From Desulfocapsa sulfexigens DSM 10523 (GTDB lineage: Bacteria > Desulfobacterota > Desulfobulbia > Desulfobulbales > Desulfocapsaceae): a DNA stretch of 32,000 nucleotides. Shown in pieces: positions 10,622 to 31,018 of this stretch. Within the stretch, counting starts at the first letter, position 1. Each line of letters opens with the position of its first letter. The notes under the pieces were generated by a model. That model was given only the letters and a program-made list of their open reading frames with translations, had not been told where the DNA came from and ran no database searches. The stretch is taken from contig NC_020304.1 of the NCBI RefSeq assembly GCF_000341395.1, forward strand, positions 1,410,001 to 1,442,000, in the 5' to 3' direction. Both the position numbers and the translations under genes were made by a program.

Positions 10622-10651
10622 TTTCATCCATAGTGTTGAGCTTTCCCTTCC

Positions 10652-12621: not shown

Positions 12622-12656
12622 GCAAATATCCTCCGGTGAAGGTGGTAACATACGAT

Positions 12657-13163: not shown

Positions 13164-13354
13164 TCTTCGCTGACGCGTTTTAGCAGTATGATGTTTTTTT
13201 CGGTGAAGCGAACAGTGACAATATCAAAACGTCTCATCGGTGGAAAAGGGTATTGGAGCCGCCAGCAGAAAATAAAGATATAGAAGGCGGCTGAGGTATC
13301 TTCTACTGATCGCAGGGAGGAAATATTTCCGTATTATCTGAGATGTTTTGCAGA

Positions 13355-14173: not shown

Positions 14174-14213
14174 AATGTGCTCTTCTAAGTGAGAGTGGAT
14201 TTATTGGGAGTTT

Positions 14214-15136: not shown

Positions 15137-15910
15137 ATGACTAAATTCATAAAATACCTTTTTCTTTCTGTTCTGCTCTTGGTGATTGTGCTTCAGGTTG
15201 CAGTTACTTTATTGAGCCCGGCGATTGACCAAGAACTTTCCAGGATGGCAATCAGCCCTCTTTCAGGGCGAAGGGGGGAGGTCTGGGGACATGCCGGGTA
15301 TACTGCTGATGGATCTGCGGCTAATAGTGTAGCAGGCCTCAATGCAGCGGTCGAGCGGCAACTTCAGGGAGTGGAGCTTGATATCCATTACGACCATGAA
15401 CTGAAGGGCTTCGTTGTTGCCCATGACCCGGACTATGATAAGAAAACTGTGCTGCCCCTCGATGAGGTTCTGGAGCGATTTGGTAGCCTGCCTGGGTTCT
15501 GGCTGGACTTCAAAAACCTGAGTAGACAACCGCCATGGCGGGTATCACTTATTGCCGAAAAACTTACCTCTCTGCTCGACAGATATGGTTGCAGTGACAA
15601 GACTCTTGTTGAGTCAAGGAATCCCGTTTATCTCTCTCTTTTGGCCCATCATGGGATACAGACAGCTTACCATCTGAGTATCAGTAAAATTCCGGCCATT
15701 TTCCGGATCGAGGAGTTTCTCTACAAGTTTGTTTTTATTTATGGCCGGTTGAGCAGCTTTTCGATTGGCCACAACCATAGTGGTGGTGAGCTGTTTAGGA
15801 GCTTTTCCCCAATCCCCTTTGTCGTCTCTACTATTAACGACCCCGATGAAATAACCAGATTGCAAAAACAGAAAACAGTTCTGGTGATTCTGTCAGACAG
15901 ACCTAGGTAA
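15137..15910 (+). CDS. Glycerophosphodiester phosphodiesterase (GDPD)-like protein, membrane-anchored
   Basis: GHAGY...ANSVAGLNAAVERQLQGVELDIHYD resembles the GHRG...EN(T/S)...ELD signature. ATG 15137 gives an N-terminal anchor (MTKFIKYLFLSVLLLVIVL). The TTG at 15050 sits only 2 nt from its putative Shine-Dalgarno. Confidence 0.55.
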   Translation: MTKFIKYLFLSVLLLVIVLQVAVTLLSPAIDQELSRMAISPLSGRRGEVWGHAGYTADGSAANSVAGLNAAVERQLQGVELDIHYDHELKGFVVAHDPDYDKKTVLPLDEVLERFGSLPGFWLDFKNLSRQPPWRVSLIAEKLTSLLDRYGCSDKTLVESRNPVYLSLLAHHGIQTAYHLSISKIPAIFRIEEFLYKFVFIYGRLSSFSIGHNHSGGELFRSFSPIPFVVSTINDPDEITRLQKQKTVLVILSDRPR

Positions 15911-15938
15911 CCATCATTTTTGCTGCTCGACATTCCTG

Positions 15939-17567
15939 TCAGTTTTCGGTCTTTGCAACGTTCTCTGCTTTTCTGTTCTCCACTTCATTTTTCTTCAAGG
16001 TCGGGATATATCGATCCGAAAAGATATCATTCGTCTCGTTATAATAGATCCCTTCTATCCCAAGAAGTCCAAGAACCGTGTGGTCGAGAAGATCAACCCG
16101 ATATGGCCGTGAAGCTATGGCTGGATCCACCTTTTCGAGGCTGGGACTCCAGAAAACCATTGGGATTTCCCATTGTTCCGGGGCCGTGTAGTTGTGACCG
16201 GAATAATTGTCATTGTGGCATACATCTTGACCATGGTCGGGAAGGTAGAGCCAGGCACTGTGCTTGGCGTCTTTTGAGTTTTTCAATATTTCGATAAGCC
16301 TGTGGCGAACCATGTCTCCATATACAATGGAGTTGTCGTAGAGGTTCCTGAAGGTCAGGGCCCACCTGGCCCGACCTTTTTCTTTAAGATCAAGGGTGAC
16401 GGGGTCATTATAGGTGTCGGTGAAAAGGCTGTACGAATCGGGGTAACGGAAGTTATAGGCGGGATGGGAACCCAGCATGTGGACGATGATGAATTTTTTG
16501 TCATGGTTGGCGGCCAGTGCTTTTTCGAAGGGGGCAAGGAGAATTGCATCATAGGAGCCCTCTCCTCTGGATTTTCCCCGGTTGGTTCGGATGATCTCAT
16601 CACCATGCTCTGAAAAAATCTTGATGATACCTTTATGGGCGTCGGTGGAGTGGTTAGAGATGTAAGTGACATGGTAACCCGCATGTTTTGCTATAAGGAG
16701 GATATCAGGATCGGTTTTCCAGCGCTCCGGTTCCTCTATCGTTGCTGGGGTCAGCATATGGAGAAAAGCGACCAGAGTTGCCGGAGCGGCAGCGTGAATA
16801 TTCTCAAAAACCACGAGTTCGTCTTTCATCCCATCGAGTTGCGGCGTTGTTTTTCTGTCATAGCCGTAGAGTGACCAGTTGTGCCTCGTGTCACTCTCTC
16901 CGATAACCAGGACGACGGTTTTTTTCTCCTCATCGCCAGTGTATGTCATGAGATCAAGGTTTGAAATTTTCAGGTTGGCATCGAGTTCCTCGACCAGACG
17001 GGCAGTGACACGAAGGGCCTCCTGCCAGTTATTATAGTAGTAGGGAAAATATATAAAAGGATTGGAACGGTATAATGACGGGTTAAGGTGAATAACAGTT
17101 GTCAGGAGCAGAAACACCACCAGTTGCCATCTTTGCCGCCTCGGGCTGGGCGAAGAGAGCGGAGTATTGATTACGTACCGCAGATAGAGTGTGAACAGAG
17201 CAATGCAGAGAACAGTATGTTTGATCAGGTACCAGCGGTAGTGGAGAACAAATTCCGTACTTTCACTCTGGTCTGTTGAAAAGATGGCGGCCATAATAGC
17301 GTTTTCTTCCTGGGCCACTCCGAAAATATCCTTTAATCCGGCATGAAAGCTCATATTGACAAAGAGCACCAGCAGGGTAAAAAAAGTTATATACTTGAGT
17401 TTTTTGGACTCCGGAAAATAAGGTTTGAGGGCCAGGAGGCTGCCAATCAGGAGCACCCCGATCAATGCAATCTTACCAGCACGGGCATGATTGAGATAAC
17501 CAATAAGATAATAGGTCAGAGGAAATATAGAAAATACAAAAGCTTTGATGAACGGTGTTTTGAACAT
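15939..17567 (-). CDS. Phosphoethanolamine transferase (EptA/sulfatase-domain family)
   Basis: An N-terminal multi-TM region precedes VVLVIGESDTRHNWSLYGYDRKTTPQL and HMLGSHPAYNFRYP, both typical of lipid A/core pEtN transferases. The start is ambiguous: ATG 17567 gives about 542 aa, while the ORF-track TTG at 17708 adds 47 aa. Confidence 0.8.
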   Translation of the reverse strand: MFKTPFIKAFVFSIFPLTYYLIGYLNHARAGKIALIGVLLIGSLLALKPYFPESKKLKYITFFTLLVLFVNMSFHAGLKDIFGVAQEENAIMAAIFSTDQSESTEFVLHYRWYLIKHTVLCIALFTLYLRYVINTPLSSPSPRRQRWQLVVFLLLTTVIHLNPSLYRSNPFIYFPYYYNNWQEALRVTARLVEELDANLKISNLDLMTYTGDEEKKTVVLVIGESDTRHNWSLYGYDRKTTPQLDGMKDELVVFENIHAAAPATLVAFLHMLTPATIEEPERWKTDPDILLIAKHAGYHVTYISNHSTDAHKGIIKIFSEHGDEIIRTNRGKSRGEGSYDAILLAPFEKALAANHDKKFIIVHMLGSHPAYNFRYPDSYSLFTDTYNDPVTLDLKEKGRARWALTFRNLYDNSIVYGDMVRHRLIEILKNSKDAKHSAWLYLPDHGQDVCHNDNYSGHNYTAPEQWEIPMVFWSPSLEKVDPAIASRPYRVDLLDHTVLGLLGIEGIYYNETNDIFSDRYIPTLKKNEVENRKAENVAKTEN

Positions 17568-17712: not shown

Positions 17713-18348
17713 CTATTGTTTTACAAGAGGAAGACGATGATGGGAGATGATGTGCATTAATATATCAGCAGCTGTTTTGAGTGTGAGAAAAACAAATAGC
17801 AGCCACGTTGATTCTCCACTTATGGCTGCACCGAGGATGATAATCAGATGCATGGGGATGATCCTTGCATAAGGGAAAAACATAAGAGTACCGATATTAG
17901 GATTTCCGGCAGCATCTTGTTCCTTATTATAGCGATAGGAAAAGGCGTGATTGAAAAGAAAAATGCCAAGTCCAACGGCTCCATGGAGCATAAAGTACGG
18001 TGAGGTTTCCGGGATGCTGGTTATGAGGAAGATAGCGTAAAAAAGATGGAATGCACCGTAATGGAAAAGGAAAAACCAGGCGGTGGATTTTTGGGTTTTC
18101 GGGGCGGCTTCTGCCTGTCTTCCATTGATTTTGAAGCCCTTTGTGCTGAATGACTTCAGAGCAAGAATGCGCCTCCAGTTAAAAAATCCGATAATCATGT
18201 TCTGCCACCAGTAAATCCAGAGGAGTTCCCCCATGGACCAGCGTTGAACAAGAGCCAGAACTATAACAATCAGGTTTGAGAAGAAGAGCAGCCGGATAGA
18301 AGGGTCTGTACGAAGTCTGTAGCGTACTGTTGTTTCTGTTATTTTCAA
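17713..18348 (-). CDS. Polytopic membrane protein of unknown function (possibly DUF6498-like)
   Basis: 211 aa with about 5 predicted TM segments and a LLWIYWWQNMIIGFFNWRRIL motif. The family assignment is from memory only. Confidence 0.55.
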   Translation of the reverse strand: MKITETTVRYRLRTDPSIRLLFFSNLIVIVLALVQRWSMGELLWIYWWQNMIIGFFNWRRILALKSFSTKGFKINGRQAEAAPKTQKSTAWFFLFHYGAFHLFYAIFLITSIPETSPYFMLHGAVGLGIFLFNHAFSYRYNKEQDAAGNPNIGTLMFFPYARIIPMHLIIILGAAISGESTWLLFVFLTLKTAADILMHIISHHRLPLVKQ

Positions 18349-18461: not shown

Positions 18462-19835
18462 TTAAAGAATATCGTACTCCTTGAGTTTGTTCAACAGGGT
18501 TTGGCGGGCAACTCCTAAAATCTTGGCCGTTTTACTCCTGTTCCCCTCATTTTGGGCAAGAGTTGCACGTATCATTTCCCGCTCCATATCTCGAAGTGTA
18601 ACAGGTGCTGCCGTCGGATCCTGATTTGTCGTTGCTCCCTCGGGTCGTATTTGTGGTGGTAATTCCCGAATGGTGATCCGTTCACCGGGACAGAGGATTA
18701 CAGCCCGCTCCACTGTGTTTTCAAGTTCACGAATATTACCAGGCCATTGATGCGCCATGAAGATGCGCAGTACTTCAGGGGCAAATCCCTTTATGTCTTT
18801 CCTATTTTTTACGGAATAGCGTTCAAGGAAAAGGGAGGCAAGTTCCGGAATATCTCTGGTACGCTCGCGCAGGGGAGGCAACTCCACCGGTACCACGGAA
18901 AGCCTGAAAAACAGATCCTGTCTGAACGTCTTTTCCTCAATCATAAGCTGCAGATTTCTGTGAGTTGCCGCAAGTACGCGCACATCGACCTTGATGGTCT
19001 CGCTTCCTCCCAATCTGTCCAGTTCTCCTTCCTGGAGTACTCTTAAAATCTTGGCCTGGGTCTGGAGGCTCATATCTCCAATTTCATCAAGAAACAGGGT
19101 CCCCTTGTCGGCCTGTTCAAAGCGGCCTTTACGTCTGGAAACAGCACCGGTGAATGCGCCTGCTTCGTGTCCAAAGAGTTCACTTTCAAGAAGATTTTCA
19201 TTGAGGGCTGCGCAGTTTACTTTGATAAATGGATACTGTTTTCGATTACTCTGCTGGTATATGGCGCTGGCAATCAATTCTTTTCCCGTCCCGGATTCTC
19301 CGGTGATGAGTACAGTGGCGTCGGAAGGGGCAACAAGCTCAAGGGTTGCAAAAAGTTCCTCCATGGCCGGACTGCTCCCTATTATGTTGCCGAATGAAAA
19401 GCGTTTTTCCAGATGTTTTTTTAACCTGATATTTTCCTGCTTCAGTTCCTGAAAGCCAAGGGCCTTCTCCATGACCATTTTCAGTTCATCAATATCTATG
19501 GGTTTGGCTACATAGTCAAAGGCACCTTCACGCATTGCTTTGACGGCTGTTTCAACCGATGAAAAAGCAGTGAGGACTATCACCGGGATGGTTGAATGCA
19601 CTGTATCGTTAAGTGCCCTCAACGTGGCTAGTCCATCCATGCGAGCCATTTTCATATCCAGTAGGATCAGGTCTATCGGTTCCCGTTGTTCCTGTTCCAG
19701 AAATGGGATCACCTGATCACCATCATCAACTTCCATAATATGAAAGTCTTCCCCGGAGAGGTTCACCTTCAGCATGGTTCGATGGGCAGTATCATCATCC
19801 ACCAGCAGAATTCGCTTTTTATTTGTCTTGCTCAA
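18462..19835 (-). CDS. Sigma-54-dependent response regulator (NtrC/ZraR/AtoC family)
   Basis: Receiver domain (ILLVDDD...LILLDMKM), AAA+ domain with Walker A GESGTGKE and the GAFTGA loop, and a C-terminal Fis-type HTH (NRSKTAKILGVARQTLLNKLKEY). The TTG start overlaps the stop of an upstream kinase-gene remnant. Confidence 0.9.
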   Translation of the reverse strand: MSKTNKKRILLVDDDTAHRTMLKVNLSGEDFHIMEVDDGDQVIPFLEQEQREPIDLILLDMKMARMDGLATLRALNDTVHSTIPVIVLTAFSSVETAVKAMREGAFDYVAKPIDIDELKMVMEKALGFQELKQENIRLKKHLEKRFSFGNIIGSSPAMEELFATLELVAPSDATVLITGESGTGKELIASAIYQQSNRKQYPFIKVNCAALNENLLESELFGHEAGAFTGAVSRRKGRFEQADKGTLFLDEIGDMSLQTQAKILRVLQEGELDRLGGSETIKVDVRVLAATHRNLQLMIEEKTFRQDLFFRLSVVPVELPPLRERTRDIPELASLFLERYSVKNRKDIKGFAPEVLRIFMAHQWPGNIRELENTVERAVILCPGERITIRELPPQIRPEGATTNQDPTAAPVTLRDMEREMIRATLAQNEGNRSKTAKILGVARQTLLNKLKEYDIL

Positions 19836-19893
19836 ACCTGTTCTCCGGGAAGGATTATCTTCATAGTGCTGCCTTTTCCAAGAGTGCTTTCCA
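19742..19893. repeat. Direct repeat copy A (kinase 3' end plus regulator 5' end junction)
   Basis: By hand alignment it pairs with 28378-28529 over 152 ungapped positions with 18 mismatches, in the same orientation. There is a 29-nt identical core, acctgttctccgggaaggattatcttcat. Confidence 0.85.
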
Positions 19894-19894
19894 A
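19832..19894 (-). pseudogene. 3'-terminal remnant of a histidine kinase gene (last ~20 codons)
   Basis: It translates to ALESTLGKGSTMKIILPGEQV*, which matches the C-terminus of the intact kinase at 28468-30213 (EVESTLGKGTTMKIILPGEQV*). An in-frame TAA lies 10 codons further upstream, with no similarity beyond that. Confidence 0.8.
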
Positions 19895-20285
19895 CGCAGA
19901 CATCGCTCTACAAGTAGCTGGCAGCATGATTTAACCATTTCAGTTTTCCCATTATACTGCGCCAGATCTTTCTCTACAATGGTGAACTCCTCTCAACCTT
20001 CTACAGGGCTGCATTACCAAAATAGTAAAAGATCCTTCAAGTAAGGGCTGCTTTCCAGCATCTTGAATGTGTTGACCAGAAACACAAAAGGAACATTTTT
20101 GTATTTTTAAGTGTTTTTGGGACATAAGAAATTTCCTAACAGTCCTTGCCTTCCCACTTGTAAATAATATATCATTCTTTATGGCAAGAGGTACTCTTGC
20201 TCCATTCAAGAGCAACACTAACCACTCAATTTACCTCCTGGATGAACTCATGAAAACAATTCCCATAACCTCAGGGAGATGACCG

Positions 20286-21149
20286 ATGAATACTATGCTA
20301 CATGTTTTCGTACTCTTTTTTACAGCTGCATTTTTTTTCTTTTTTAACGCTGCAGTATATGCCTCCCCTCCAATAAAGGCTGCAGGATGCAAAACGGAGT
20401 ACTTTCTTATCCAAGATCTGGCTCGTGGGTATAAATCAAAAACAGCAGGAATTGTCATACCACAGAAAACCGGAAACAAGGTTGCTATAAAATTATTAAC
20501 TGCACAGCAGGTAGACTTTGCCTTCACCTGTAAACCACAGGATAATCTCATAAAAAAATTTAACATCAGCCCCGAAATTACTCAAAACTGGAAATCATTC
20601 ATCATTGCAAATGATCCTATCATTGTCGTTATTCACCGTGAAAATGGTATTATTTCATTAACTTTGGAGCAACTCAGTGGCATTTTTTCTGGAAAAATAA
20701 AGAACTGGAAAGAAATAGGTGGGATAGAGACACCGATTCAGGTTGCCTATCTTGACAAAACTGTTGAGAGCGGAGTTCTCACTCTTTTTAAAGAGCTGGT
20801 TCCAGACTCAGAGAATAACACAACAAAACAGGTGAAACTCAGACCCGATGCGTTTCAGGCAGCAGGGCCTAAGCAACTTGGAGCCTATGTGGCACAAAAC
20901 CCCGGCGGTATAAGCTTTATGGCCCTGAGTTCTTATCGACGTCGTTACGGTTCCAAGGTGAACATTAACGGTGTCCCCCCAAATCGGGAAACCATTAAAG
21001 ACGGAAGTTACCCACTAACAGTGACTTACCATATAATTTATGACAAACGAAAGGAGGAAACCCTGAAATCATTTCTTGGCTACATACAAAGTCAGGAAGG
21101 GATATCCATTATTAATCAGGGTTTTATCTCTCGTACCGAAAATAGATAG
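20286..21149 (+). CDS. PstS-family (phosphate-type) periplasmic substrate-binding protein
   Basis: 287 aa with a signal peptide (VFVLFFTAAFFFFFNAAVYA). LSGIFSGKIKNWKEIGG is the hallmark block of PstS-like PBP domains. GGGAG lies 7 nt upstream of the ATG. Confidence 0.65.
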   Translation: MNTMLHVFVLFFTAAFFFFFNAAVYASPPIKAAGCKTEYFLIQDLARGYKSKTAGIVIPQKTGNKVAIKLLTAQQVDFAFTCKPQDNLIKKFNISPEITQNWKSFIIANDPIIVVIHRENGIISLTLEQLSGIFSGKIKNWKEIGGIETPIQVAYLDKTVESGVLTLFKELVPDSENNTTKQVKLRPDAFQAAGPKQLGAYVAQNPGGISFMALSSYRRRYGSKVNINGVPPNRETIKDGSYPLTVTYHIIYDKRKEETLKSFLGYIQSQEGISIINQGFISRTENR

Positions 21150-21161
21150 GGCCAAATATTA

Positions 21162-23606
21162 ATGAAAGTGCACTCTTTAAACACCAAAATTATCCTCTGG
21201 ACCGGGCTTTGTATTGCCTGCACCGCAATGATCCTTGTGGGGTATTCATCCTGGAACCTGAGACGTAATGCTGTTACACTTGCTCAATCGACTCTTCGCA
21301 CATTCGCTCATCAACGTGGGTCTCTCATCGAGCAGGACATAAGCAGTGCCCTTGACACAAGTCGTACATTGGGGCAAGTCCTCAGCAAAGTTCACGACAG
21401 TGAATCTCCCTTAGATATCCCACGTTACGAGGCCTCTCAGCTCGTTCGAAGTATACTTGAAGAGAACCCTCACTTTTTAAGCGCATTCACCTGTTGGGAA
21501 CCACTTGGTTACGACTATATGGATGACGGCTACAAAAATGAAGAAGGACACGACGAATCAGGTCGTTTTGCACCACTGTGGCGCAGGGGAGAAAACGGGC
21601 AGGCATTTATTCAACCCCTGCTTTTAAGTCCTCTTCACATGAAAAACAGTCAGGTACAAGCTTGGTATACTTCGCCACAGACAAAAAAAAACGCACACGT
21701 TTTTGGTCCAAGTTACGATAGTGAAAATGATCGCTGGTTTGTCACGGTCACAGTACCCATTCTTGATCAGAATAAATTCCAGGGAGTTGTTGGTGTTGAT
21801 CTTGATTTGGGGCCGTTGCAAAACTCAATCCTCACAGAAGAACTCTTTGACGGCAATGCACAAATCTCTGTATTAAACCAAAATGGAGTTTATGTTGTCG
21901 GTAGCAACCCTGAGCATTTTTCAGAAGGAGAACTGTTAGATTCCTGCGATGAACATGGTTTTTTATATAATTCTTTACAGAATCATGAAGAGATTTTTGG
22001 TGTTCATAACAATCAATTTCATATGTTGCTTCCCATCCCCCTCAGTAACAGCGACACAACCTGGAACCTCCTCTTTGTTGTTCCTGTGCCGTCCCTGACA
22101 AAAGAAATCACCACCCTGATGTGGAAACAGATTGCACTCCTGATAGGTATTTTGGTCGTCATGCTTCCCGTTTCCCTATTAGGCACCAGACGCATTCTGA
22201 ACCGCCCTCTATCCCTTCTCCTTGAAGGTGTTCAAAAAGTTTCCGGTGGTAACTTGGACCATGAGGTAACAGTTGCTTCCTCCGATGAGATCGGAACCAT
22301 AGGCATGGCGTTTAATACCATGCGCATTAAACTCAAGGAGATGGTCTCTGCCCTTGAAAAACATCAATTGGAACTGGAAGATAAAGTCGCTCAACGGACC
22401 AAAGATCTTGAAAGCAAGAACAATGAAATAGAAGAACATCGAGGTAAGCTGCAAAAAGCATTGGATGAAACATCTGCCCTCATCCAGGCCATTCTTAAAG
22501 AAGGTGGAAGTCTTGATGTTTTTTTTGAAAATCCGGGCCTCCAGTCTTGCTGGGAGTTGATGAAGTGTACCAAAGAAGAATGTCCCTGTTATGGGAAAAA
22601 ATCTCTTCGGTGCTGGCAGGTTGATAACACACTCTGCTACGATATGGGATGTAAAGAAAACTTTAAAGAAAAATTTATTGAGTGTCAGAAATGTAGGGTT
22701 GTAAAAGAGGCGACTCATGACCCGTTGCAGCAAATTGGTGAACATTTCAATAACATGATCTTTATGCTTCAGACCAATAAAAAAGAACTGGATCAAGCAC
22801 ACCAGCGCCTCCTCCAATCACAAAAAATGGAATCTGTCGGACAGTTGGCTGCTGGCATTGCTCATGAAATCAATACACCGGCCCAATTTGTGGGTACCAA
22901 TCTTGATTTCCTGACAGAGGCATTTACTGATATAAACACTCTTGTGGAATCATTGAAAGAAATACCTTTTTTAAAAGAGGGAAGTGGTACCAAGGCATTT
23001 GAAAATGCACTTGAAGAAGCAGACTGGGACTACCTGGTTGCCGAACTTCCTCAGGCACTTGCTCAATCAAGGGATGGTATTGAACGGATCAGCTCAATTG
23101 TTCTGGCCATGAAAGATTTTTCTCATCCGGCAAGTAAAGAAATGACTCCGTCCGACTTAAATAAGCTTATTGCCACCACCATGACTGTTGCCAGAAATGA
23201 GTGGAAATATGTTGCAGAACTCATAACTGACTTTGACCAGCAATTGCCTCAGGTTCCTCTTTTAGCAGATCAGATGGGGCAGGTAATTCTCAATATACTT
23301 GTTAATGCAGCCCATGCCGTTGAAGAACGATACGGGAGTAATCCTGAAACTGGAGTCATAAAAATATCTACTGAGCGCACTGGCGACACAGTCAAAGTAC
23401 GATTGGTGGATAACGGAACAGGTATGCCCGAAGACGTAAAAAGTCGAATCTTCGACCCTTTCTTCACCACCAAAGAAGTCGGTAGGGGGACAGGTCAGGG
23501 CTTGGCCATTGCCTATGATATTATCGCGAATAAACATGGCGGTAAGCTGGAATGTGAAAGTGAAAAAGGAAAAGGAAGCACCTTTGTGATTACTCTTCCA
23601 CTCTGA
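21162..23606 (+). CDS. Sensor histidine kinase: TM, Cache-like periplasmic domain, TM, HAMP, coiled coil, Cys-rich module, DHp, HATPase
   Basis: 814 aa with two TM segments flanking about 290 periplasmic residues. It has a HAMP region (RRILNRPLSLLLEGVQKVSGGNLDHEV...), an H-box LAAGIAHEINTP, an N-box ILNILVNAAHAV and G-boxes DNGTGMP / GRGTGQGLAI. No response regulator gene is adjacent. Confidence 0.85.
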   Translation: MKVHSLNTKIILWTGLCIACTAMILVGYSSWNLRRNAVTLAQSTLRTFAHQRGSLIEQDISSALDTSRTLGQVLSKVHDSESPLDIPRYEASQLVRSILEENPHFLSAFTCWEPLGYDYMDDGYKNEEGHDESGRFAPLWRRGENGQAFIQPLLLSPLHMKNSQVQAWYTSPQTKKNAHVFGPSYDSENDRWFVTVTVPILDQNKFQGVVGVDLDLGPLQNSILTEELFDGNAQISVLNQNGVYVVGSNPEHFSEGELLDSCDEHGFLYNSLQNHEEIFGVHNNQFHMLLPIPLSNSDTTWNLLFVVPVPSLTKEITTLMWKQIALLIGILVVMLPVSLLGTRRILNRPLSLLLEGVQKVSGGNLDHEVTVASSDEIGTIGMAFNTMRIKLKEMVSALEKHQLELEDKVAQRTKDLESKNNEIEEHRGKLQKALDETSALIQAILKEGGSLDVFFENPGLQSCWELMKCTKEECPCYGKKSLRCWQVDNTLCYDMGCKENFKEKFIECQKCRVVKEATHDPLQQIGEHFNNMIFMLQTNKKELDQAHQRLLQSQKMESVGQLAAGIAHEINTPAQFVGTNLDFLTEAFTDINTLVESLKEIPFLKEGSGTKAFENALEEADWDYLVAELPQALAQSRDGIERISSIVLAMKDFSHPASKEMTPSDLNKLIATTMTVARNEWKYVAELITDFDQQLPQVPLLADQMGQVILNILVNAAHAVEERYGSNPETGVIKISTERTGDTVKVRLVDNGTGMPEDVKSRIFDPFFTTKEVGRGTGQGLAIAYDIIANKHGGKLECESEKGKGSTFVITLPL

Positions 23607-23819
23607 TAATCACCAGAGAGAACAGAGACACTTACATAAGCCGCTTTTAAACATATTCCCAAACCTATCCACTCTCATCCTTTTTTTATAGTGTGCAAAA
23701 GAAAAATATCTGGTCTAACGGCTCCTTGAAACATAAACCCAGGGGATTACCGGGAGGCTGATTATACGAAAGATACAGAGAAAAGATAGCATACATCATC
23801 GTGGAAAAAAATAGAAAAT

Positions 23820-23849
23820 TTGACAAACAGACTAATATGGGTGTATATA
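23820..23849 (+). promoter_or_regulatory. Putative sigma-70 promoter of marR (TTGACA, 18 nt, TATATA)
   Basis: TTGACA is at 23820-23825 and TATATA at 23844-23849. The marR ATG (23857) lies 7 nt after the -10 element and has no Shine-Dalgarno, which suggests a leaderless mRNA. Confidence 0.45.
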
Positions 23850-23858
23850 CACCCATAT
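23835..23858. promoter_or_regulatory. Perfect 24-nt palindrome, candidate MarR operator overlapping the -10 element and the start codon
   Basis: ATATGGGTGTAT|ATACACCCATAT. It shares the core GGTGTA-NN-TACACC with the palindrome at 24324-24343. Confidence 0.6.
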
Positions 23859-24309
23859 GGCCGATTCTAATACTATACACTTGGAACTATCCAACATACC
23901 TGCTCAATGTGTTGCCTATAATTTTCAGAAAACCGCAAGGGTAATAACATCTTTTTACAGAAGAACGATTGCCCCATCTGGTCTAAAAGGCAATCAGTTC
24001 CCTTTGTTGCTCGCAATAAAACTGTCACAACCAATTTCTATAACAGAGCTTGCAAAGACCCTGGATTTGGACCGGACAACATTGAGTAGGAACTTGAAAA
24101 TACTTGAAAAAAATAGTTATGTTAGTTTAGAGCAAAGTAATGATCACCGCATACGAAACGTTCAGTTATCTGGAGAGGGAGAAGTGATTCTTAATCTTGC
24201 TCTTCCCCTATGGCAACAAGCTCAAAACACCATAGTAGAAAAAATTGGAAAAGATCAGTGGAGCAATCTTTTGTCTTCCTTCCATGATTTAGCAAGTATC
24301 GTAAAGTAG
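23857..24309 (+). CDS. MarR-family transcriptional regulator
   Basis: 150 aa with a winged-helix region (ISITELAKTLDLDRTTLSRNLKILEKNSYV) typical of MarR. Confidence 0.85.
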   Translation: MADSNTIHLELSNIPAQCVAYNFQKTARVITSFYRRTIAPSGLKGNQFPLLLAIKLSQPISITELAKTLDLDRTTLSRNLKILEKNSYVSLEQSNDHRIRNVQLSGEGEVILNLALPLWQQAQNTIVEKIGKDQWSNLLSSFHDLASIVK

Positions 24310-24323
24310 TTTTTTTTACCATG

Positions 24324-24343
24324 ATAGGTGTACCTACACCTAT
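24324..24343. promoter_or_regulatory. Second palindrome (9+2+9), candidate MarR operator upstream of the AhpD-like gene
   Basis: ATAGGTGTA-CC-TACACCTAT, located 32 nt upstream of ATG 24375. It has the same GGTGTA-NN-TACACC core as the marR palindrome. Confidence 0.5.
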
Positions 24344-24374
24344 CGTCAGCACACACGAACCATAGGGAAAAATT

Positions 24375-24899
24375 ATGTTTATTATTGACGCAAAGCCACC
24401 TGAGAATCCAACCAAAAAACTGAAAGCAATGCTTGATGTCTTCGAAAAAAAGTTTGGTGGGGTGCCACCTCATTTTAAACTTTTGGGGACATTAAATTCA
24501 GATGAATTAGAGATTACCTTGGACTATGTAATTCGCCTGATGCAACATCCAACAATCAATCCTGATCTATTCACTTTCCTACGACTGCATATAGCTCAAC
24601 AAGAAGGATATCGATATTGTGTACAGTTTAACACAAATCTTTTGAAATCTGCTGGTTATGACAATGATATAATCATAAAATCATCAGGTGATATCAGCAA
24701 AGTGCCATTTGAAAAGAAACTTCAAATTTTAGCAATTAAAGCTGTAAAAGGGGTGTTGCGATTTAAAGAATTTGGAAAAAGAGATCTGGACGAACTGTAT
24801 GGGGTTGGTTGGGATGACAATGAGATTTTTGATGCCATTAATCATTGTGGCTTTATGTTGAAAAATGGAAGATTAATCAGTTCCTATATTCTCAAGTAG
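24375..24899 (+). CDS. AhpD-like / carboxymuconolactone decarboxylase superfamily protein (tentative)
   Basis: 174 aa and helical. LRLHIAQQEGYRYCVQFN resembles the CMD-domain core but lacks the canonical CxxC...H (only one Cys is retained). AGGGA Shine-Dalgarno. Confidence 0.45.
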   Translation: MFIIDAKPPENPTKKLKAMLDVFEKKFGGVPPHFKLLGTLNSDELEITLDYVIRLMQHPTINPDLFTFLRLHIAQQEGYRYCVQFNTNLLKSAGYDNDIIIKSSGDISKVPFEKKLQILAIKAVKGVLRFKEFGKRDLDELYGVGWDDNEIFDAINHCGFMLKNGRLISSYILK

Positions 24900-25409
24900 T
24901 TGTAAGCAAATGTATAGACTGCACTGATTTGTCCATTACTTTTAGTAAGCAGTTTTGTCCCAAACAAAAAAATTGCTATAGTAACCGTTTTTTGTTTTAA
25001 ATACCGCTCTCGGTATTGTTAAGTACTTTCCTTAGGAAAGAAAAATGGAGTACAGAGTAGCAATCACTATGTTTATATTATTTATAATTGGTATGTTTCG
25101 TTTTTAACTGGGCTTTTGATGGTAAATTTGGACTGGATAATGTTATTCCAACCCAGAGTCGGGATAATTTAATAATTCAAGATCTTCGACCTGGCTCTTT
25201 AGACAATTTTAACAGCATTGCACTTGATGAAGCGCAGAATCATATTTTCTTCGTTGCCGAACACTCATAATTTCTTCCTGTCAGTCTTTTTATCAATGAC
25301 TTAACCGAGTGTCCACTCTTTCATGGCAGGATCACTCGATAATTTGCCATTTTCTCCCAATAATACAAAAGCAGGAACTCAATCAACTCTTTAAACGAGG
25401 GAATCACTA

Positions 25410-28145
25410 ATGGGAAAAATTCATCCTGTCACACCTTCCACTGAAAATGTAACAATTCAAATTCCTGATTCACCATGGGCAGACTCTTTAGAGGATTCCG
25501 TCAAAAAACTTCAGGTTGAACCTTCACAAGGGCTTAGTACAACAGAGGCCAGCGCACGTCTACAGACCTTTGGTCATAATATGTTGCGGGAAGTTAAGTC
25601 TAAGAGTTCATTGACGATCTTTATTAATCAGTTCAAAAATCTCATTGTCGTGTTCCTTATTGCCGCATCACTCCTCTCTTTTTCTTTTGGCGAATATGTG
25701 GAAGGCCTGGCGATTGGTATTGTTATTGTTATTAACGCTATTATTGGTTTTGTAACAGAATTAAAAGGAGCCCGTTCCATTGAGGCTCTGCGCAAACTCG
25801 GCAGTGTCAGCTCACGTGTGCGAAGAGATGGCAGGATAAGTGAGATTCTCGCCAACGACCTTGTTCCAGGTGACATTATTATACTGGAAGGTGGCGATGT
25901 CATCTCCGCTGATCTTCGTATCATTACTGCTTCAAGACTTCAATCCGACGAATCTGTTCTCACCGGTGAATCCCTCCCTGTCGGCAAATCAGTGGAAGTG
26001 CTTGGAGAAGGAACATCCCTTGCCGACAGAGATAATATGCTTTTCAAAGGTACGGCCCTTACTCGAGGTTCGGGAGAGGCGGTGGTCATTGCTACGGGAA
26101 TGGAGACTGAGCTTGGGAAAATTTCCTCTCTGGTTGCAGGAACCAAAGAAGATGCGACCCCCCTTGAGAAAAGGCTCAATCAGCTCGGAAACTGGCTTAT
26201 CTGGGTATGTCTCATTATTGCAGTATTTGTCGTTGTAACAGGGTTAATGGCAGGACAAGAGTTGTACCTGATGATTGAAACAGGCATTGCCCTTGCTGTA
26301 GCCTCAATCCCCGAAGGCTTGCCAATTGTTGCAACAATTGCCCTGGCAAGGGGCGTATGGCGTATGGCCAAACGTAATGCACTAATAAAGGAGCTATCAG
26401 CAGTCGAAACACTCGGAGCAACAAGCATTATCTGCACCGATAAGACAGGAACACTTACCGAAAATCGTCTCACCGCGGTGAAGTTTGCCATTGCAACCGG
26501 TTCGATTGATATACATATAAATTCCCCGGAAAAAGAAAAAACCTTTGTTGGTGATGCAGGAGAAATTTCTCTCCCTGAAACCAATAGAGCACTGCAACAT
26601 GTTCTTGAAGTTGGTGTCCTCTGCAACAATGCTGAGATTACCCTCTCTCCTGAAGGAGTTATAGTAAAATCCGTAGGGGATCCGCTGGAGGTTGCCCTTC
26701 TTGCGATTGCCGTAAAAGCTGGTATGACCAGAGAAGACCTCGCTGTTCAATTCCCTGAAGACAAAGAAACATCCTTTGATTCGGATATCAAAATGATGGC
26801 AACTTATCATCGTGTTGACGAAGGGTACCGAATAGCTGTAAAAGGTGCTCCGGAAAGCGTTATTGAAGCATGTGACACACTCTTCACGGGGGATGGTGGA
26901 ACTGCACTGACCGCTGAAGACAGGAAGCAGTGGAGTCAGTTAAATGAAGAAATGGCGGCTAAGGGGCTTCGTGTTCTGGCTTTGGCTGAAAAGCAGTCAA
27001 ATAATCTGGAGGAGGAACCTTACGCCAAACTTCAGCTTGTCGGTCTGGTCGGGTTGATGGATCCACCCCGTGAAGATGTAAAAGAGGCATTGGCACAGTG
27101 TCGCGAAGCCGGGATTCGCGTTATCATGGCTACAGGAGACCAGGCGGTGACAGCCCAGGCGATAGGGAGAGCCGTTGGCCTTGTAGCTGAGGATAATGCC
27201 CAGGTTATTCATGGACTTGATTTGGGCAGGCTTGTAGACCTTTCTGAAGCCGAGAAAGATAGAATTGCTTCAGCACAGCTTTTTGCAAGGGTCAGCCCAA
27301 GCCAGAAGCTTGACCTGATAGCCTTTCACCAGGAAAGACATGCAATTGTTGCGATGACCGGAGACGGAGTGAATGATGCTCCTGCTTTGAAAAAGGCTGA
27401 CATTGGTATCGCCATGGGACTTCGTGGCACACAGGTTGCCAGGGAAGCATCCGACATGATTCTTAAGGACGATTCCTTTGCTTCAATTGTTCATGCTGTT
27501 AAACAGGGCAGGATTATTTTCAAAAACATTCGGGCGTTTGTCATTTATCTCCTGTCCTGTAATCTCAGTGAAGTGATGACAGTCACCTGTGCGATGTTAC
27601 TCGGCATGCCTCTGCCACTTCTCCCCCTACAGATTCTTTTTCTCAATATCGTCACCGATGTTTTCCCTGCCCTTGCCCTTGCAGCTGGAGAAGAGAACGA
27701 CAATATTATGAAAAACAAACCGCGGGACAAGCGTGAACCCATCATGTCTAAAATACACTGGTTCGCTGTTTCAGGCTATGGAGCAATCATGACTTGTGCC
27801 GTTCTTGGTGCTTTTTACATTTCACTCAACACTTTGAATTTACCAGAAAAAGAGTCTGTCACCATATCTTTTCTGACCCTGGCTTTTGCTCAACTCTGGC
27901 ATGTATTTAACATGCGGGAACGCAACTCAGGGGTTCTAAACAATGGTATTATTAAAAACCCTTTTATCTGGGGAGCACTTGCTCTTTGTACAGTGCTTCT
28001 TATGTTGGCCCTGTATGTTCCATTTATGGCAAATATTCTCAGGCTTGCAAACCCTGGATTTATTGGCCTGGCCCTAGTCTTGGCAATGAGCCTTCTGCCA
28101 CTTCTGGGTGGACAGTTGTTTCACTTAATTCTTGGTCGAAAATAG
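25410..28145 (+). CDS. P-type cation-transporting ATPase, P2 (Ca2+/Mg2+-type) family
   Basis: 911 aa with an N-terminal cation-ATPase domain (LSTTEASARLQTFGHNML), TGES, IPEGLP in TM4, the phosphorylation site CTDKTGTLTEN, MATGDQ and the hinge MTGDGVNDAPALKKADIGIAMG. GAGGGA lies 7 nt upstream. Confidence 0.9.
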   Translation: MGKIHPVTPSTENVTIQIPDSPWADSLEDSVKKLQVEPSQGLSTTEASARLQTFGHNMLREVKSKSSLTIFINQFKNLIVVFLIAASLLSFSFGEYVEGLAIGIVIVINAIIGFVTELKGARSIEALRKLGSVSSRVRRDGRISEILANDLVPGDIIILEGGDVISADLRIITASRLQSDESVLTGESLPVGKSVEVLGEGTSLADRDNMLFKGTALTRGSGEAVVIATGMETELGKISSLVAGTKEDATPLEKRLNQLGNWLIWVCLIIAVFVVVTGLMAGQELYLMIETGIALAVASIPEGLPIVATIALARGVWRMAKRNALIKELSAVETLGATSIICTDKTGTLTENRLTAVKFAIATGSIDIHINSPEKEKTFVGDAGEISLPETNRALQHVLEVGVLCNNAEITLSPEGVIVKSVGDPLEVALLAIAVKAGMTREDLAVQFPEDKETSFDSDIKMMATYHRVDEGYRIAVKGAPESVIEACDTLFTGDGGTALTAEDRKQWSQLNEEMAAKGLRVLALAEKQSNNLEEEPYAKLQLVGLVGLMDPPREDVKEALAQCREAGIRVIMATGDQAVTAQAIGRAVGLVAEDNAQVIHGLDLGRLVDLSEAEKDRIASAQLFARVSPSQKLDLIAFHQERHAIVAMTGDGVNDAPALKKADIGIAMGLRGTQVAREASDMILKDDSFASIVHAVKQGRIIFKNIRAFVIYLLSCNLSEVMTVTCAMLLGMPLPLLPLQILFLNIVTDVFPALALAAGEENDNIMKNKPRDKREPIMSKIHWFAVSGYGAIMTCAVLGAFYISLNTLNLPEKESVTISFLTLAFAQLWHVFNMRERNSGVLNNGIIKNPFIWGALALCTVLLMLALYVPFMANILRLANPGFIGLALVLAMSLLPLLGGQLFHLILGRK

Positions 28146-28238
28146 ACCTGATGAAGATTGATGTTCAGATAGGACTTATCTGAGCATCAATCAGCCTAAA
28201 CTGATTGTGCTTCAAAAGCAGGCAAAAAACAACGTGCA

Positions 28239-28267
28239 AAAGGGGACAATCAGAAGTGGTCCCCTTT
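28239..28267. terminator. Hairpin with T-rich flanks on both strands (possible bidirectional terminator)
   Basis: A 9-bp stem (aaaggggac / gtccccttt) with an 11-nt loop. On the plus strand it is followed by gtttgaac...tttttttt. On the minus strand it is followed by ttttgcacgttgttttttgcc. Confidence 0.5.
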
Positions 28268-28363
28268 GTTTGAACAAGTATCTTTTTTTTGAGATTTTCT
28301 ATAGTTCTCTTCAATTGAGTAGATCACTTCTCGCATTTTTCACGCAAGAAAATCTCCCAAAAG

Positions 28364-28471
28364 CTAAGACTTTTTCTGAAAAACTTCCCCGGAGAGGCTC
28401 TCTTTTAGCATGGTTTGATGGGCAGTATCATTATCCACCAGTAGAATTCGCTTTTTATTCGCTTTACTCAC
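28364..28471 (-). pseudogene. 5'-terminal remnant of a response regulator gene (35 codons)
   Basis: A GTG start overlaps the kinase stop (GTGTGA). The translation is MSKANKKRILLVDNDTAHQTMLKESLSGEVFQKKS*, compared with MSKTNKKRILLVDDDTAHRTMLKVNLSGEDFHIM... in the intact regulator at 18462-19835. It ends before the phospho-acceptor Asp. Confidence 0.8.
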
Positions 28472-28529
28472 ACCTGTTCTCCGGGAAGGATTATCTTCAT
28501 GGTGGTGCCTTTTCCAAGTGTACTTTCCA
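28378..28529. repeat. Direct repeat copy B (kinase 3' end plus regulator 5' end junction)
   Basis: Partner of 19742-19893, in the same orientation, with about 88 percent identity by hand alignment. Confidence 0.85.
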
Positions 28530-30213
28530 CTTCAATACGTCCGTGATGCTGTTCTATGATCTGATGACTCACGGCAAGACCGAGCCCTGTTCCATCTTTG
28601 CGGGTTGAAAAAAATGGATCAAAAAGTTTTTCCTGCTCCTCATCTGTCATACCATGCCCCGTATCGCTCACCTCGATGCAGATGTCGTCGTTTTTTTTGT
28701 GTGCAGCCAGAAGTATTGTGCCACCATTCTCTGTTACGCTGATACTGTTTTTGAGCAAGTTCAAAAGTACCTGAAGGAGGAGGTCCGGATCTGCATTGAA
28801 TACTAGTTCTGAGTCATAGTCCTTCTGGAAATCGATCTGATGTGCCGCAAAATCCACTTCCATCAGACTGGAAAGCTTTCCAAACAGTTCCTCTGCTTTC
28901 ACTTGTATACGCTGAGGTTCACGTGCTCTTGCAAACTGGAGAAGGCTGGAAATTGTCTGATTGAGACGATCCACTTCGGAGACCATGAGGTCAGCATATT
29001 TTTTTCCATCACTGCCAGGTTCCGACCTGGTGCCAAAGTATTGCGCAAAACCGCGCAGTGTTCCTAAGGGGTTTCGTATTTCATGAGCGACTCCGGCCGC
29101 CATTTTTCCCAATGAGGCAAGTCGCCTGGAAAGTTCGAGTTGCTGTTCAACTTTTCTGATATCCCGCATGTCTCTTAGGATAATCACCAGTCCTGTCTTT
29201 TTTCCATTATGGTCTAAAAGAGGTGAGGTTGAGAGTTTAACCGGGATATCTTCCCCCAGTGGGTTGTGACAAAGGACATCACTCTCGATGAGCAGTTGAT
29301 CCTGCTGCTGATCATCCGTAAAGGAAGAGAAAAGTTCCTGAGGTTGCAAGTTATTCATCTCTGAAAAACGACGGGAAAGCAACTGTTCTGCCTTTTTATT
29401 ACAGGAAACGATGGCATTGCTGCTGTTCAGGGTAATAAGTCCGGCCGGCATGCTTTCGATAACATTGTCAGTATAGAGCTGCATATTGACCAGGGTAGAT
29501 TTACCAACTCGAATGCTCTGATAGAGAAAAAGAAAATACAGTCCAGCACTCCCGAGTAAAAAGAGGAGGGCTCCCATAAGGAGCGCCCGGGTTTTGTCTT
29601 CCTGCCGCGCAGTGTCGAAGGCGCTGGTTCCCAGACCAACCACGATTAATTGACGGCCTTTGTTCTGCATTTCCTCCTGCATCATCTGCATATGTTGATA
29701 CATTTTGCCACGCATGGAATTGGATGGTGACGATGGCGTAGGTTTCCTGCCGCGTCTTGGCATAAGTGGTGGAAGTGGCTCAAAAATTCTTGCCAGTTCA
29801 AATACACTTTTTTCCGGTATTGTCCGGGTGACTGGTGATTCTGCGTCAAGTATTCGTTGAACCTCCTCTTTGTCTATTGGTGGGGGAAGGTCGCCTGCTT
29901 CGGCAACGCTTTCACCATTCTCGTGAAGAATGCGAATGTAAACGACGCTCTCTTCTTTGGTTGTCTCTTCAACCAGAGTTTCGAGGGGGTTACTTCCGCT
30001 CATGTAGTGCATCATTGATGTTCTTGCTCCCGCTTCAAAAGAACGTATCAGGGTCAGGCCCTGCTGGAGGAGGGAATTCTCAAGGAGGCGCTGTTCACGG
30101 TTGAGGTTGCGAACGGTTGTAAATGCAAGGATAACAGCCAGGAGGCAACTTGCAAGGATGAGTACAAGAGCGGGTTTTGAGAATTTAAATGGCTGGTGAG
30201 TGGAAGGCATCAT
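28468..30213 (-). CDS. Sensor histidine kinase (ZraS/AtoS-like: TM, periplasmic domain, TM, PAS, HisKA, HATPase)
   Basis: 581 aa with an H-box AAGVAHEIRNPL, an N-box LLNLLKNSISV and G-boxes DTGHGM / GTGLGLAV. A PAS-like segment (ESMPAGLITLNSSNAIVSCNKKAEQLL) is also present. Confidence 0.9.
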   Translation of the reverse strand: MMPSTHQPFKFSKPALVLILASCLLAVILAFTTVRNLNREQRLLENSLLQQGLTLIRSFEAGARTSMMHYMSGSNPLETLVEETTKEESVVYIRILHENGESVAEAGDLPPPIDKEEVQRILDAESPVTRTIPEKSVFELARIFEPLPPLMPRRGRKPTPSSPSNSMRGKMYQHMQMMQEEMQNKGRQLIVVGLGTSAFDTARQEDKTRALLMGALLFLLGSAGLYFLFLYQSIRVGKSTLVNMQLYTDNVIESMPAGLITLNSSNAIVSCNKKAEQLLSRRFSEMNNLQPQELFSSFTDDQQQDQLLIESDVLCHNPLGEDIPVKLSTSPLLDHNGKKTGLVIILRDMRDIRKVEQQLELSRRLASLGKMAAGVAHEIRNPLGTLRGFAQYFGTRSEPGSDGKKYADLMVSEVDRLNQTISSLLQFARAREPQRIQVKAEELFGKLSSLMEVDFAAHQIDFQKDYDSELVFNADPDLLLQVLLNLLKNSISVTENGGTILLAAHKKNDDICIEVSDTGHGMTDEEQEKLFDPFFSTRKDGTGLGLAVSHQIIEQHHGRIEVESTLGKGTTMKIILPGEQV

Positions 30214-30415: not shown

Positions 30416-30922
30416 TTATTCTGCAGCAAAAGCTGCCTGGCGCTTGGCTTGCAGTTCCTGTCGCATGGTGAAGATTTCTTTTTCCTGTGCCTGCAGTTCA
30501 CCTTGGGTCATTGCGGGGTTACGGGTTGCTTCTCTATAGGCGAACTGTTTGTCATGGATCTGTTTGCGGAGCTCTACGGTTGCATCGAGAAACGCATTCC
30601 TTTTTTCAACCATTTCTGGGTTCATCATCGCGCCGCCGCGATTTTTGTAACATCTGCCCTGCTTCATTCCCTTGTGTCCCATTCCCATACAGGGACCAGC
30701 GTTATCACGAAAACAATCCTGACCATTGTTGCCCATCATTCCCTGTCCCCGCATACTGCCTGGACCCTGTCCGTTCATCATTCCCTGACCATTCATTCTT
30801 CCGTAGCCAGGACCAGCAGCAGGGATCTGAGGGTCTGGAGTAGCTGTGGTTGTCGCCAGAGCAACGCCTGCTACAAGTGAAAGGGCCATAGCTGCTGCTA
30901 CAATATTTCTTTTCATTTTCAT
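30416..30922 (-). CDS. ZraP/Spy/CpxP-like periplasmic stress protein with a Gly/Met-rich N-terminal region
   Basis: 168 aa with a signal peptide (AAAMALSLVAGVALA) and repeated GQGMM units (GRMNGQGMMNGQGPGSMRGQGMMGNNGQ). There are three Cys and a helical C-terminal half with an LTPEQ-like region (MTQGELQAQEKEIFTMRQELQAKR). AAGGAG Shine-Dalgarno. It sits next to the ZraS-like kinase and downstream of a sigma-54 promoter. Confidence 0.7.
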   Translation of the reverse strand: MKMKRNIVAAAMALSLVAGVALATTTATPDPQIPAAGPGYGRMNGQGMMNGQGPGSMRGQGMMGNNGQDCFRDNAGPCMGMGHKGMKQGRCYKNRGGAMMNPEMVEKRNAFLDATVELRKQIHDKQFAYREATRNPAMTQGELQAQEKEIFTMRQELQAKRQAAFAAE

Positions 30923-31002: not shown

Positions 31003-31018
31003 AGCATGTAGCGTGCCA
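31003..31018 (-). promoter_or_regulatory. Sigma-54 (-24/-12) promoter of the zraP-like gene
   Basis: Minus strand TGGCACG-CTAC-ATGCT versus consensus TGGCACG-N4-TTGCW, with correct GG/GC spacing. It lies about 80 nt upstream of ATG 30922. Confidence 0.75.

Follow-up and report, generated by a model that had tools for sequence, protein, structure and literature searches.

How can an operon whose two genes overlap by four nucleotides be pulled 8.5 kb apart and lose neither of them? The question is raised by a stretch of 32,000 nucleotides from the genome of Desulfocapsa sulfexigens DSM 10523 (contig NC_020304.1, positions 1,410,001 to 1,442,000 of the forward strand; we call this whole stretch the window and, unless another locus is named, count all coordinates from its first letter). 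On its minus strand lie the gene of a sensor histidine kinase and the gene of a sigma-54-dependent response regulator, and between them stands an insert of five genes, which we call the cargo. Each of the separated genes has a torn piece of the other beside it, and the torn and whole pieces together make up two imperfect direct copies of one kinase-stop/regulator-start junction.

How, then, did the junction come to exist twice, and what has happened since in the space between its copies? Our answer, which we hold at a probability of roughly 0.55, is that a single ancestral insertion duplicated ~155 bp of its target, that the result was tolerated, and that the cargo was afterwards replaced.

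One Junction in Two Copies

Read along the minus strand, the locus runs through a secreted-protein gene, the kinase, a receiver-head open reading frame (ORF), the cargo, a kinase-tail fragment and the regulator (Table 1). A preliminary description of this DNA had reported the intact kinase with a 35-codon receiver head behind it and the intact regulator with a kinase tail of ~20 codons before it, and both the ORFs and tblastn agree. It had also aligned 19742-19893 with 28378-28529 as direct repeats of 152 nt with 18 mismatches, in the same orientation and with abrupt inner ends. Our realignment gives exactly this (134 of 152 positions match, ungapped), and all of the earlier coordinates and counts proved correct on rechecking, as did the 4-nt overlap of kinase stop and regulator start that each copy keeps (GTGTGA and GTTTGA).

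An independent repeat search of the window recovered this pair too, with a length of 153 nt, an identity of 88% and a spacing of 8636, by far the longest repeat that the window holds; the next families reach 31-41 nt at 71-80%. At the inner edges of both copies, the number of identical positions per 10-nt block falls from 8-10 to 1-4, and a MAFFT alignment agrees. The duplicated target of ~155 bp extends from kinase -62 to regulator +93. Both copies, A on the regulator side and B on the kinase side, cover exactly the same interval, with the cargo sitting exactly between them, and a 28-nt core is identical in the two. Further remnants suspected by eye on the inner flank of copy A (19894-19990) gave local alignments no better than shuffled sequences, and we have dropped them.

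The receiver head has taken six amino acid replacements, including a D-to-N change in the acidic pocket, and has a premature stop after its 35 codons. Of the five differences between the kinase tails of the two copies, four are synonymous. The last ~30 nt of the kinase-tail remnant contain the GGAG ribosome-binding site of the regulator together with a sigma-70-like match, TTGGAA-16-GATAAT (19881->19854). This match is present in both repeat copies (19854-19881 and 28490-28517, both on the minus strand), ~20 nt upstream of the regulator start, and could be a candidate internal promoter of the regulator that is older than the split.

Might all of this be nothing but the family resemblance of any kinase end and any regulator start, a doubt that the preliminary description had itself raised? 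The receiver-head remnant agrees with regulators from the same clade at 78-81 of 93 nt, compared with 60-69 of 93 nt for more distant orthologues, and an unrelated neighbouring response regulator reaches only ~37% protein identity, so the doubt can be set aside: the similarity of the repeats exceeds both chance and any generic kinase/regulator likeness. As the remnants are closest to the genes of their own clade, they derive from this lineage and are neither old paralogues nor a distant import.

Relatives With and Without the Split

What did the locus look like before? Relatives were found by scans with the kinase, which led to Desulfocapsa and Desulfobulbaceae genomes (handles such as L016 denote the loci fetched). 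In L003/L013, L023, L024, L021 and L005-L008, with kinases 52-80% identical to that of the window, kinase and regulator are contiguous and their stop and start overlap; in L003/L013 the kinase is 80% and the regulator 91% identical. This contiguity in more distant relatives indicates that the contiguous, overlapping pair is the ancestral state. It bears out the earlier proposal of a single operon split by inserted DNA, and it supports the companion remark that recombination between the two copies would rebuild the junction. The other earlier proposal, reciprocal decay of two paralogous operons, fares badly: among the relatives examined, none has two complete tandem operons at this position (the intact ones have a single pair), there are no remnants in the inner flanks, and the fragments are nearest to this lineage's genes.

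The split state is found in three types of genome. The window shares its insert of 8.5 kb and its repeats of 152 nt (88%) with strains L028 and L029 of the same species (98.4% nucleotide identity). In L016 (kinase 95%, regulator 99% identical), the insert measures 1.1 kb and holds one ORF for a secreted protein of 201 aa, between repeats of 83 nt (88%). In L002 and its independent Logan twin L022 (kinase 91%, regulator 94%), an insert of 4.2 kb stands between repeats of 55 nt (89%). The split thus belongs to a clade and did not arise lately in this one genome; what the repeats enclose, at 8.5, 1.1 and 4.2 kb, differs completely. Sensitive blastn and local alignments of the window, L016 and L002 found nothing in common between the cargos except the repeats and 17 nt. 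Those 17 nt (AGCGATGTCTGCGTTG...) follow the regulator-side boundary that the window and L016 share, and no other cargo is common to these two; the 17-mer has no further occurrence in the window or in the fetched loci.

The insert of L002, a Desulfocapsa metagenome-assembled genome (Tobar13.5m-G31; insert at 10260-14303, equal to 2498-6541 of L022), is a junkyard of defence and mobile-element pieces: AbiEi/AbiEii, a C-terminal fragment of Cas6, two IS66 transposase fragments and DruA (DUF4338). Downstream of the regulator, at 15794-16125, the same genome retains only the C-terminal part (approximately residues 481-589) of a phosphoethanolamine-transferase gene and is without the DUF6498 gene, from which it follows that the other flank of the regulator has also been rearranged between genomes.

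An empty site was not found by protein and contig look-ups among genomes with a kinase more than 84% identical. At 84% itself stands L020 (SRR33089659), whose kinase tail follows the consensus as far as CTTCCCGG and no further, on a contig that stops 65 nt beyond this break. What follows CTTCCCGG there (7105-7182) is unrelated sequence that supplies a new kinase tail (SLP*) and is present in no other fetched locus; it may be a repeated element that landed within the junction core.

A History Read From the Repeats

Can the duplication be dated? Synonymous divergence (dS) from the window is 0.09-0.17 to L016, 0.23-0.34 to L002, 0.79 to L020 and 0.86-1.36 to L003. The repeat copies differ by ~12% in all three genome types, and by ~15% outside a constrained core of 30 nt. 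Given that one half of each copy should evolve neutrally, this divergence points to an age near the split of window and L002, and the dating is compatible with a duplication roughly that old. The lengths of the remnants are nested: regulator head and kinase tail measure 93 and 62 nt in the window, 24 and 62 in L016, and 20 and 37 in L002, as expected if one ancestral duplication erodes from inside. The useless halves of the repeats decay and appear to be trimmed from their inner ends. Codon 4 of the regulator is GCG in the B copies of all three genomes and ACA or ACG in the functional A copies of the window and L002, a single site that speaks for common descent.

The copies also seem to have talked to each other. 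The regulators of the window and L016 differ at 31 nucleotides, four of them at nt 9-15 and then none until nt 300; at three of the four clustered differences (nt 9, 10 and 12), the functional copy of L016 has the state of the B copies. The cluster looks like a gene-conversion tract. Over the final ~30 nt of the kinase tail, A and B agree fully in the window and in L016 and at all but one position in L002, yet this stretch differs between genomes (GEQV as opposed to GGPV), a pattern that we read as concerted evolution between the copies. The same 30 nt may also be held by selection because the GGAG ribosome-binding site and the sigma-70-like match lie there.

In strain L028, the kinase-tail remnant has gained 1 nt. 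The insertion brings an upstream ATG into frame, so that the regulator (2634-4100 of L028, minus strand) is called at 488 aa instead of 457, an annotation artefact.

The Locus and Its Cargo

The features of the locus are collected in Table 1.

Table 1. Features of the split operon and its cargo, in the order of the minus strand (positions in the window)
Feature	Positions	Strand	Basis or remark
Sigma-54 promoter-like site, TGGCACGCTACATGC	31004..31018	-	first gene of the locus begins 82 nt downstream; one mismatch to TGGCAC-N5-TTGC
Secreted Gly/Met-rich protein, 168 aa, in zraP position	30416..30922	-	ORF; family unconfirmed
Intact sensor histidine kinase, 581 aa, PAS-HisKA-HATPase_c, ends ILPGEQV*	28468..30213	-	Pfam
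Repeat copy B, kinase side	28378..28529		functional kinase tail and decaying regulator head
Receiver-domain head remnant, 35 codons to stop (VSKANKKRILLVDNDTAHQTMLKESLSGEVFQKKS*)	28364..28471	-	tblastn, 77% over 31 aa of the regulator N-terminus
GGGGAC...GTCCCC hairpin with T-run	28238..28264	-	sequence and fold; missed by a consensus scan
P2A (Ca-type) P-type ATPase gene	25410..28145	+	Pfam, NCBIfam; within the ATPase module 25183..28377
Possible decayed relic of IS3-type transposase OrfA	25183..25336	-	weak; homology to a stretch of L030; window copy has stops and no match
Protein of 174 aa, weakly peroxidase-related (AhpD/CMD-like)	24375..24899	+	TIGR01926 E 2.4e-6, below cut-off; G+C ~0.35
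MarR-family regulator	23857..24309	+	Pfam MarR_2, MarR
Orphan histidine kinase, 814 aa: dCache, HAMP, Cys-rich linker, HATPase_c	21162..23606	+	Pfam
PstS-family periplasmic binding protein, upstream of the orphan kinase	20286..21149	+	PBP_like_2; TIGR02136 below cut-off
Cargo-side sequence of 17 nt (AGCGATGTCTGCGTTG...)	19894..19910	-	common to L016 only; marks the shared boundary
Kinase-tail remnant, 20 codons	19835..19894	-	tblastn, 90% over 20 aa
Repeat copy A, regulator side	19742..19893		decaying kinase tail and functional regulator head
Intact sigma-54-dependent response regulator, 457 aa, REC-Sigma54_activat-HTH_8	18462..19835	-	Pfam; TTG start overlaps the TGA of the remnant

The interrupted pair is a generic NtrC-family (AtoSC/ZraSR-like) sigma-54 two-component system: HisKA and HATPase_c in the kinase, and REC, Sigma54_activat and HTH_8 in the regulator, are matched in Pfam at E values of 1e-14 to 1e-73. 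It resembles ZraPSR and AtoSC of Escherichia coli in both domain orders (PAS-HisKA-HATPase_c, and REC-AAA+-Fis helix-turn-helix) and in the small secreted-protein gene that adjoins the kinase with a sigma-54-like promoter. It differs in gene order and in its scores: the best NCBIfam matches fall far under the equivalog cut-offs (AtoS 293 against 646 bits, ZraS 286 against 479, AtoC 528 against 714, ZraR 476 against 760). The small protein has no match in Pfam or NCBIfam, the ZraP, Spy and CpxP families included, and its gene is kept upstream of the kinase in L002, L003, L005 and L016. The sigma-54-like sites are matches to the consensus, and their total in the window is no higher than chance; the consensus scan found none before the cargo genes, the sole perfect match (27425-27439) lying inside the coding region of the ATPase. 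The hairpin beyond the receiver head could plausibly terminate the kinase transcript on one strand and that of the ATPase gene on the opposite one.

What sits between the copies? The five cargo genes, recognised by Pfam and NCBIfam, are all on the plus strand, opposite to the operon, as had been noted earlier. They had also been called A+T-rich, which is true of 19.5-25.5 kb (G+C 0.35-0.43) and fails for the ATPase gene, at 0.47 as G+C-rich as the flanks. Because the ATPase resembles the flanks in G+C whereas the remainder is A+T-rich, we regard the cargo as a mosaic of three G+C blocks. Of the earlier claim that integrase, transposase, tRNA and terminal inverted repeats are all missing, everything stands except the transposase, of which a weak, decayed OrfA relic may survive at ~25183-25336. 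Searches for integrases and recombinases (Phage_integrase, Recombinase) had no match in the cargo ORFs and gap ORFs of the window, in L016 or in the called genes of L022; the cargo and gap ORFs of the window have no transposase or integrase domains; and the window has no tRNA or tmRNA genes, no Rfam family and no terminal inverted repeats. There is an internal inverted repeat of 27 nt, 85% complementary, between the 3' end of the 174-aa gene (24816-24842) and the 5' part of the ATPase gene (25623-25649), and its arms flank the A+T-rich gap and the relic of the insertion sequence (IS). In the orphan kinase, a Cys-rich stretch (CWELMKCTKEECPCYGKKSLRCWQVDNTLCYDMGCKENFKEKFIECQKC; aa 463-511, at 22548-22694 on the plus strand) lies between HAMP and the kinase core, where there is no Pfam domain; it could be a metal- or redox-sensing module.

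One part of the cargo is known from elsewhere. The ATPase module (25183 to ~28378) recurs at 90% nucleotide identity in L030/L031, in another neighbourhood, and its homology with L030 ends exactly where the regulator-head remnant starts. The stretch of L030 homologous to the OrfA relic holds an ORF of 56 aa that scores below the gathering threshold of HTH_Tnp_1 (E 2.4e-4). An 85%-identical ATPase stands among lpx genes in L032. In view of these other contexts and of the IS relic at its edge, the module has moved, probably with the help of an IS, and the cargo was built stepwise. The copy in L030 (4023-12238; Logan SRR27456247) encodes an ATPase 96% identical in protein to that of the cargo, followed by a DUF6268-like gene, two adjacent tyrosine recombinases, KTSC, a defence pair of a HerA-like ATPase with SIR2_2, and NOV_C; it is an integrative defence island of a related genome. 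Integrase genes were found only here, beside the module in its L030 context. L030 has no junction fragment and no junction k-mers above 12.

Elsewhere in the window, a selD-like selenophosphate synthetase gene (6662-7714, minus strand) has an in-frame TGA (7676-7678) in its N-terminal motif (…VKAAG*AAKLGPGDL…). The codon most likely specifies selenocysteine; because it is read as a stop, the ORF finder reports a fragment of 282 aa.

How the Operon May Have Been Split

In the explanation that we prefer, the kinase-stop/regulator-start overlap would have been split once, in the ancestor of the window organism, L016 and probably L002, by an insertion of foreign DNA that duplicated the interval from kinase -62 to regulator +93. 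Had DNA simply been inserted into a 4-nt overlap, either the kinase or the regulator would have been lost. The split could be tolerated, we reason, because the duplication leaves both genes whole: in copy B, the kinase retains its own C-terminus and stop codon, and in copy A, the regulator retains its ribosome-binding site, its TTG start and the ~60 nt before them. The interval that separates the copies would then have become a permissive, fast-evolving islet, in which cargo could be gained, lost and replaced, with the copies occasionally exchanging sequence by gene conversion. The kinase is presumably still co-transcribed with the gene upstream of it, its transcript now ending at the hairpin, and the regulator would now need a promoter in the cargo edge or in the kinase-tail remnant, its transcript being predicted to start within 19854-20290; we infer this pattern of transcription from sigma-54-like and sigma-70-like sites and a hairpin that are themselves matches to consensus or sequence.

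Where might the second copy of the junction have come from? We favour an origin in situ, either through an illegitimate two-ended insertion at staggered positions or through a short tandem duplication with insertion at its joint, because only two illegitimate joints would be needed and because the fragments are the lineage's own. In second place we put a circular element that captured the junction and then entered by a Campbell crossover.

Several points should trouble anyone who prefers this explanation, and they trouble us. The case for one origin that takes in L002 consists of a single informative site (codon 4), the nestedness and the dating, and L002 has neither a boundary nor any cargo in common with the window. 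Within every genome, the kinase tail is of the home type in both copies, and independent events would explain this no less well than gene conversion. With its break at CTTCCCGG, L020 seems to record one more event at the same spot, separate from the others, which suggests a hotspot. The cargo occupies precisely the joint between the remnants, and no part of either has strayed to the wrong side, the very geometry that a Campbell crossover would give automatically. The four synonymous differences among the five in the kinase tail would also suit a fragment that was once part of a functional gene elsewhere. The promoter of the regulator, finally, is known only as a consensus match.

How do the rivals compare? 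That the arrangement is an assembly artefact, a chimaera of strains in a metagenome-assembled genome, is hardly credible. Two Logan contigs of the same sample equal the window sequence exactly, and although they do break within the insert (at 25139-25145), their ends are 7 nt apart and each contig alone holds a remnant beside an intact gene. The same gene order, at 98.4% identity, is found in another strain on a 108-kb NCBI contig (L028; GCA_975001335.1) and on the Logan contig L029, and the independent Logan assembly L022 reproduces L002. Campbell-type integration is a more serious matter, doubtful as we find it. A circle, be it a plasmid, an excised islet or another element, carrying a related junction of ~155 bp would enter by a single homologous crossover and leave junction, cargo and junction in a row, and later cargos would come and go by loop-out and re-entry. 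It accounts for the identical interval in both copies (-62 to +93) with the cargo exactly between, for three genomes with different cargos between the same kind of repeats, and for the mostly synonymous differences in the kinase tail; the 28-nt identical core could have hosted the crossover, and the ATPase module, found elsewhere beside two tyrosine recombinases and an IS relic, has moved. But the module in L030 comes without a junction fragment, the junction core pattern was found in no contig of a viral contig search, and a plasmid search with the cargo matched only conserved ATPase motifs. The fragments are nearest to their own lineage, so that a diverged donor is unneeded, and capturing 155 bp on a circle takes two illegitimate joints besides the crossover, more steps than an origin in situ. 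Nor do the cargos travel with a constant piece of junction, the repeat length varying by genome.

Repeated insertion is unlikely, in our judgement, as the source of the three split states. It would have the window and L016, L002, and L020 struck in independent events, driven by site-specific recognition of the CTTCCCGGAG core, with a new duplication of the junction at every strike. The differing boundaries and cargo of L002, the break of L020 exactly at CTTCCCGG, the home-grown kinase tails in both copies of every genome, and the overlap at the CTTCCCGGAG core of the identical blocks in the window and L002 repeats all speak for it. Yet none of the three cargos has a recombinase, an integrase or a transposase that is still intact, and we know of no mechanism that makes target duplications of 55-155 bp. 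The core consists of the regulator's ribosome-binding site and the kinase C-terminus, and its conservation is explained by ordinary selection; gene conversion is independently evidenced; and the B copies agree at codon 4, a point in favour of shared ancestry. A bolder reading, a long shot in our eyes, makes the duplicated junction a recombinase-free docking site: cargo would loop out as a circle with one junction copy and enter the intact or occupied junctions of other cells by single homologous crossover, and unrelated cassettes would circulate through one operon overlap in Desulfocapsa populations. Or else an unknown site-specific activity would target the CTTCCCGGAG core again and again. 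We think it very improbable that a whole operon was duplicated in tandem, or that paralogous operons were neighbours, the first losing most of its regulator and the second most of its kinase, with other genes inserted between. The end product would look identical, and the insert does contain, with the expected strand and order, a match to the DUF6498 gene that lies downstream of the regulator (23699-23806; 41 nt at 80%, or 40% over 37 aa), but tblastn gives that match an E of 0.58 and Pfam no support at E 10. Against it, too, no relative has two complete operons, the inner flanks hold no extra kinase or regulator remnants, and the fragments, at 88% identity to the intact genes, are not old paralogues.

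The DUF6498 match, a direct one between 17954-17994 and 23697-23737 on the same strand, had been considered as a pseudogene; even a frame-corrected translation finds no Pfam family there, and we take it as chance.

What the Split Resembles and What It Means

If the single ancestral insertion is right, the locus is a clean natural example of a translationally coupled operon that was split without loss of a gene by duplicating its overlap, and of dead space turning into a fast-turnover islet, with three unrelated cargos at a synonymous divergence of only 0.1-0.3. It also offers a small, datable case of gene conversion between repeats kilobases apart. For annotators, it is a warning: the 35-codon receiver ORF is spurious, and the regulator of L028 has been mis-called. 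A literature search for published cases of a split two-component operon with junction duplication gave nothing relevant. To what known kinds of locus, then, does it belong?

Tyrosine-recombinase genomic islands integrate at the end of a tRNA or protein gene, with attL and attR direct repeats that restore the target. Our locus shares with them a foreign, partly A+T-rich cargo, intact target genes and imperfect direct repeats that duplicate the target (152 nt at 88% in the window, 83 nt in L016, 55 nt in L002), between which recombination would restore an empty site. Unlike such islands, the three cargos have no integrase, excisionase or tRNA, the repeat spans two gene ends and varies in length, and the cargo is wholly different in close relatives. 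Composite transposons and ISs are no better a model: terminal inverted repeats are absent, the one candidate transposase is a decayed OrfA relic, and the duplication is ~155 bp as opposed to a short one of 2-14 bp.

Campbell-type insertion-duplication, in which circular DNA enters by one homologous crossover, is used with laboratory suicide plasmids, and the anatomy of such constructs is identical to ours: gene 1 intact, the head of gene 2, cargo, the tail of gene 1, gene 2 intact. The difference is that searches of viral contigs, plasmids and L030 found no circular carrier, and that the copies are 12% diverged and eroded, which makes the event an old one. The pangenome, finally, knows variable islets and replacement hotspots, which lie between conserved core genes. 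Here, as there, one position between conserved flanks carries unrelated gene sets (L002 has defence genes and IS debris, the window has genes for transport and regulation, and L016 has a single small secreted protein), but this hotspot lies inside an operon, at a 4-nt overlap, and exists only through the duplication of the junction. All of this is essentially ordinary genome evolution, with dynamics of a known kind and no new molecular system; what is new is that, across a whole clade, the cargo has turned over while the two copies of the junction went on converting each other.

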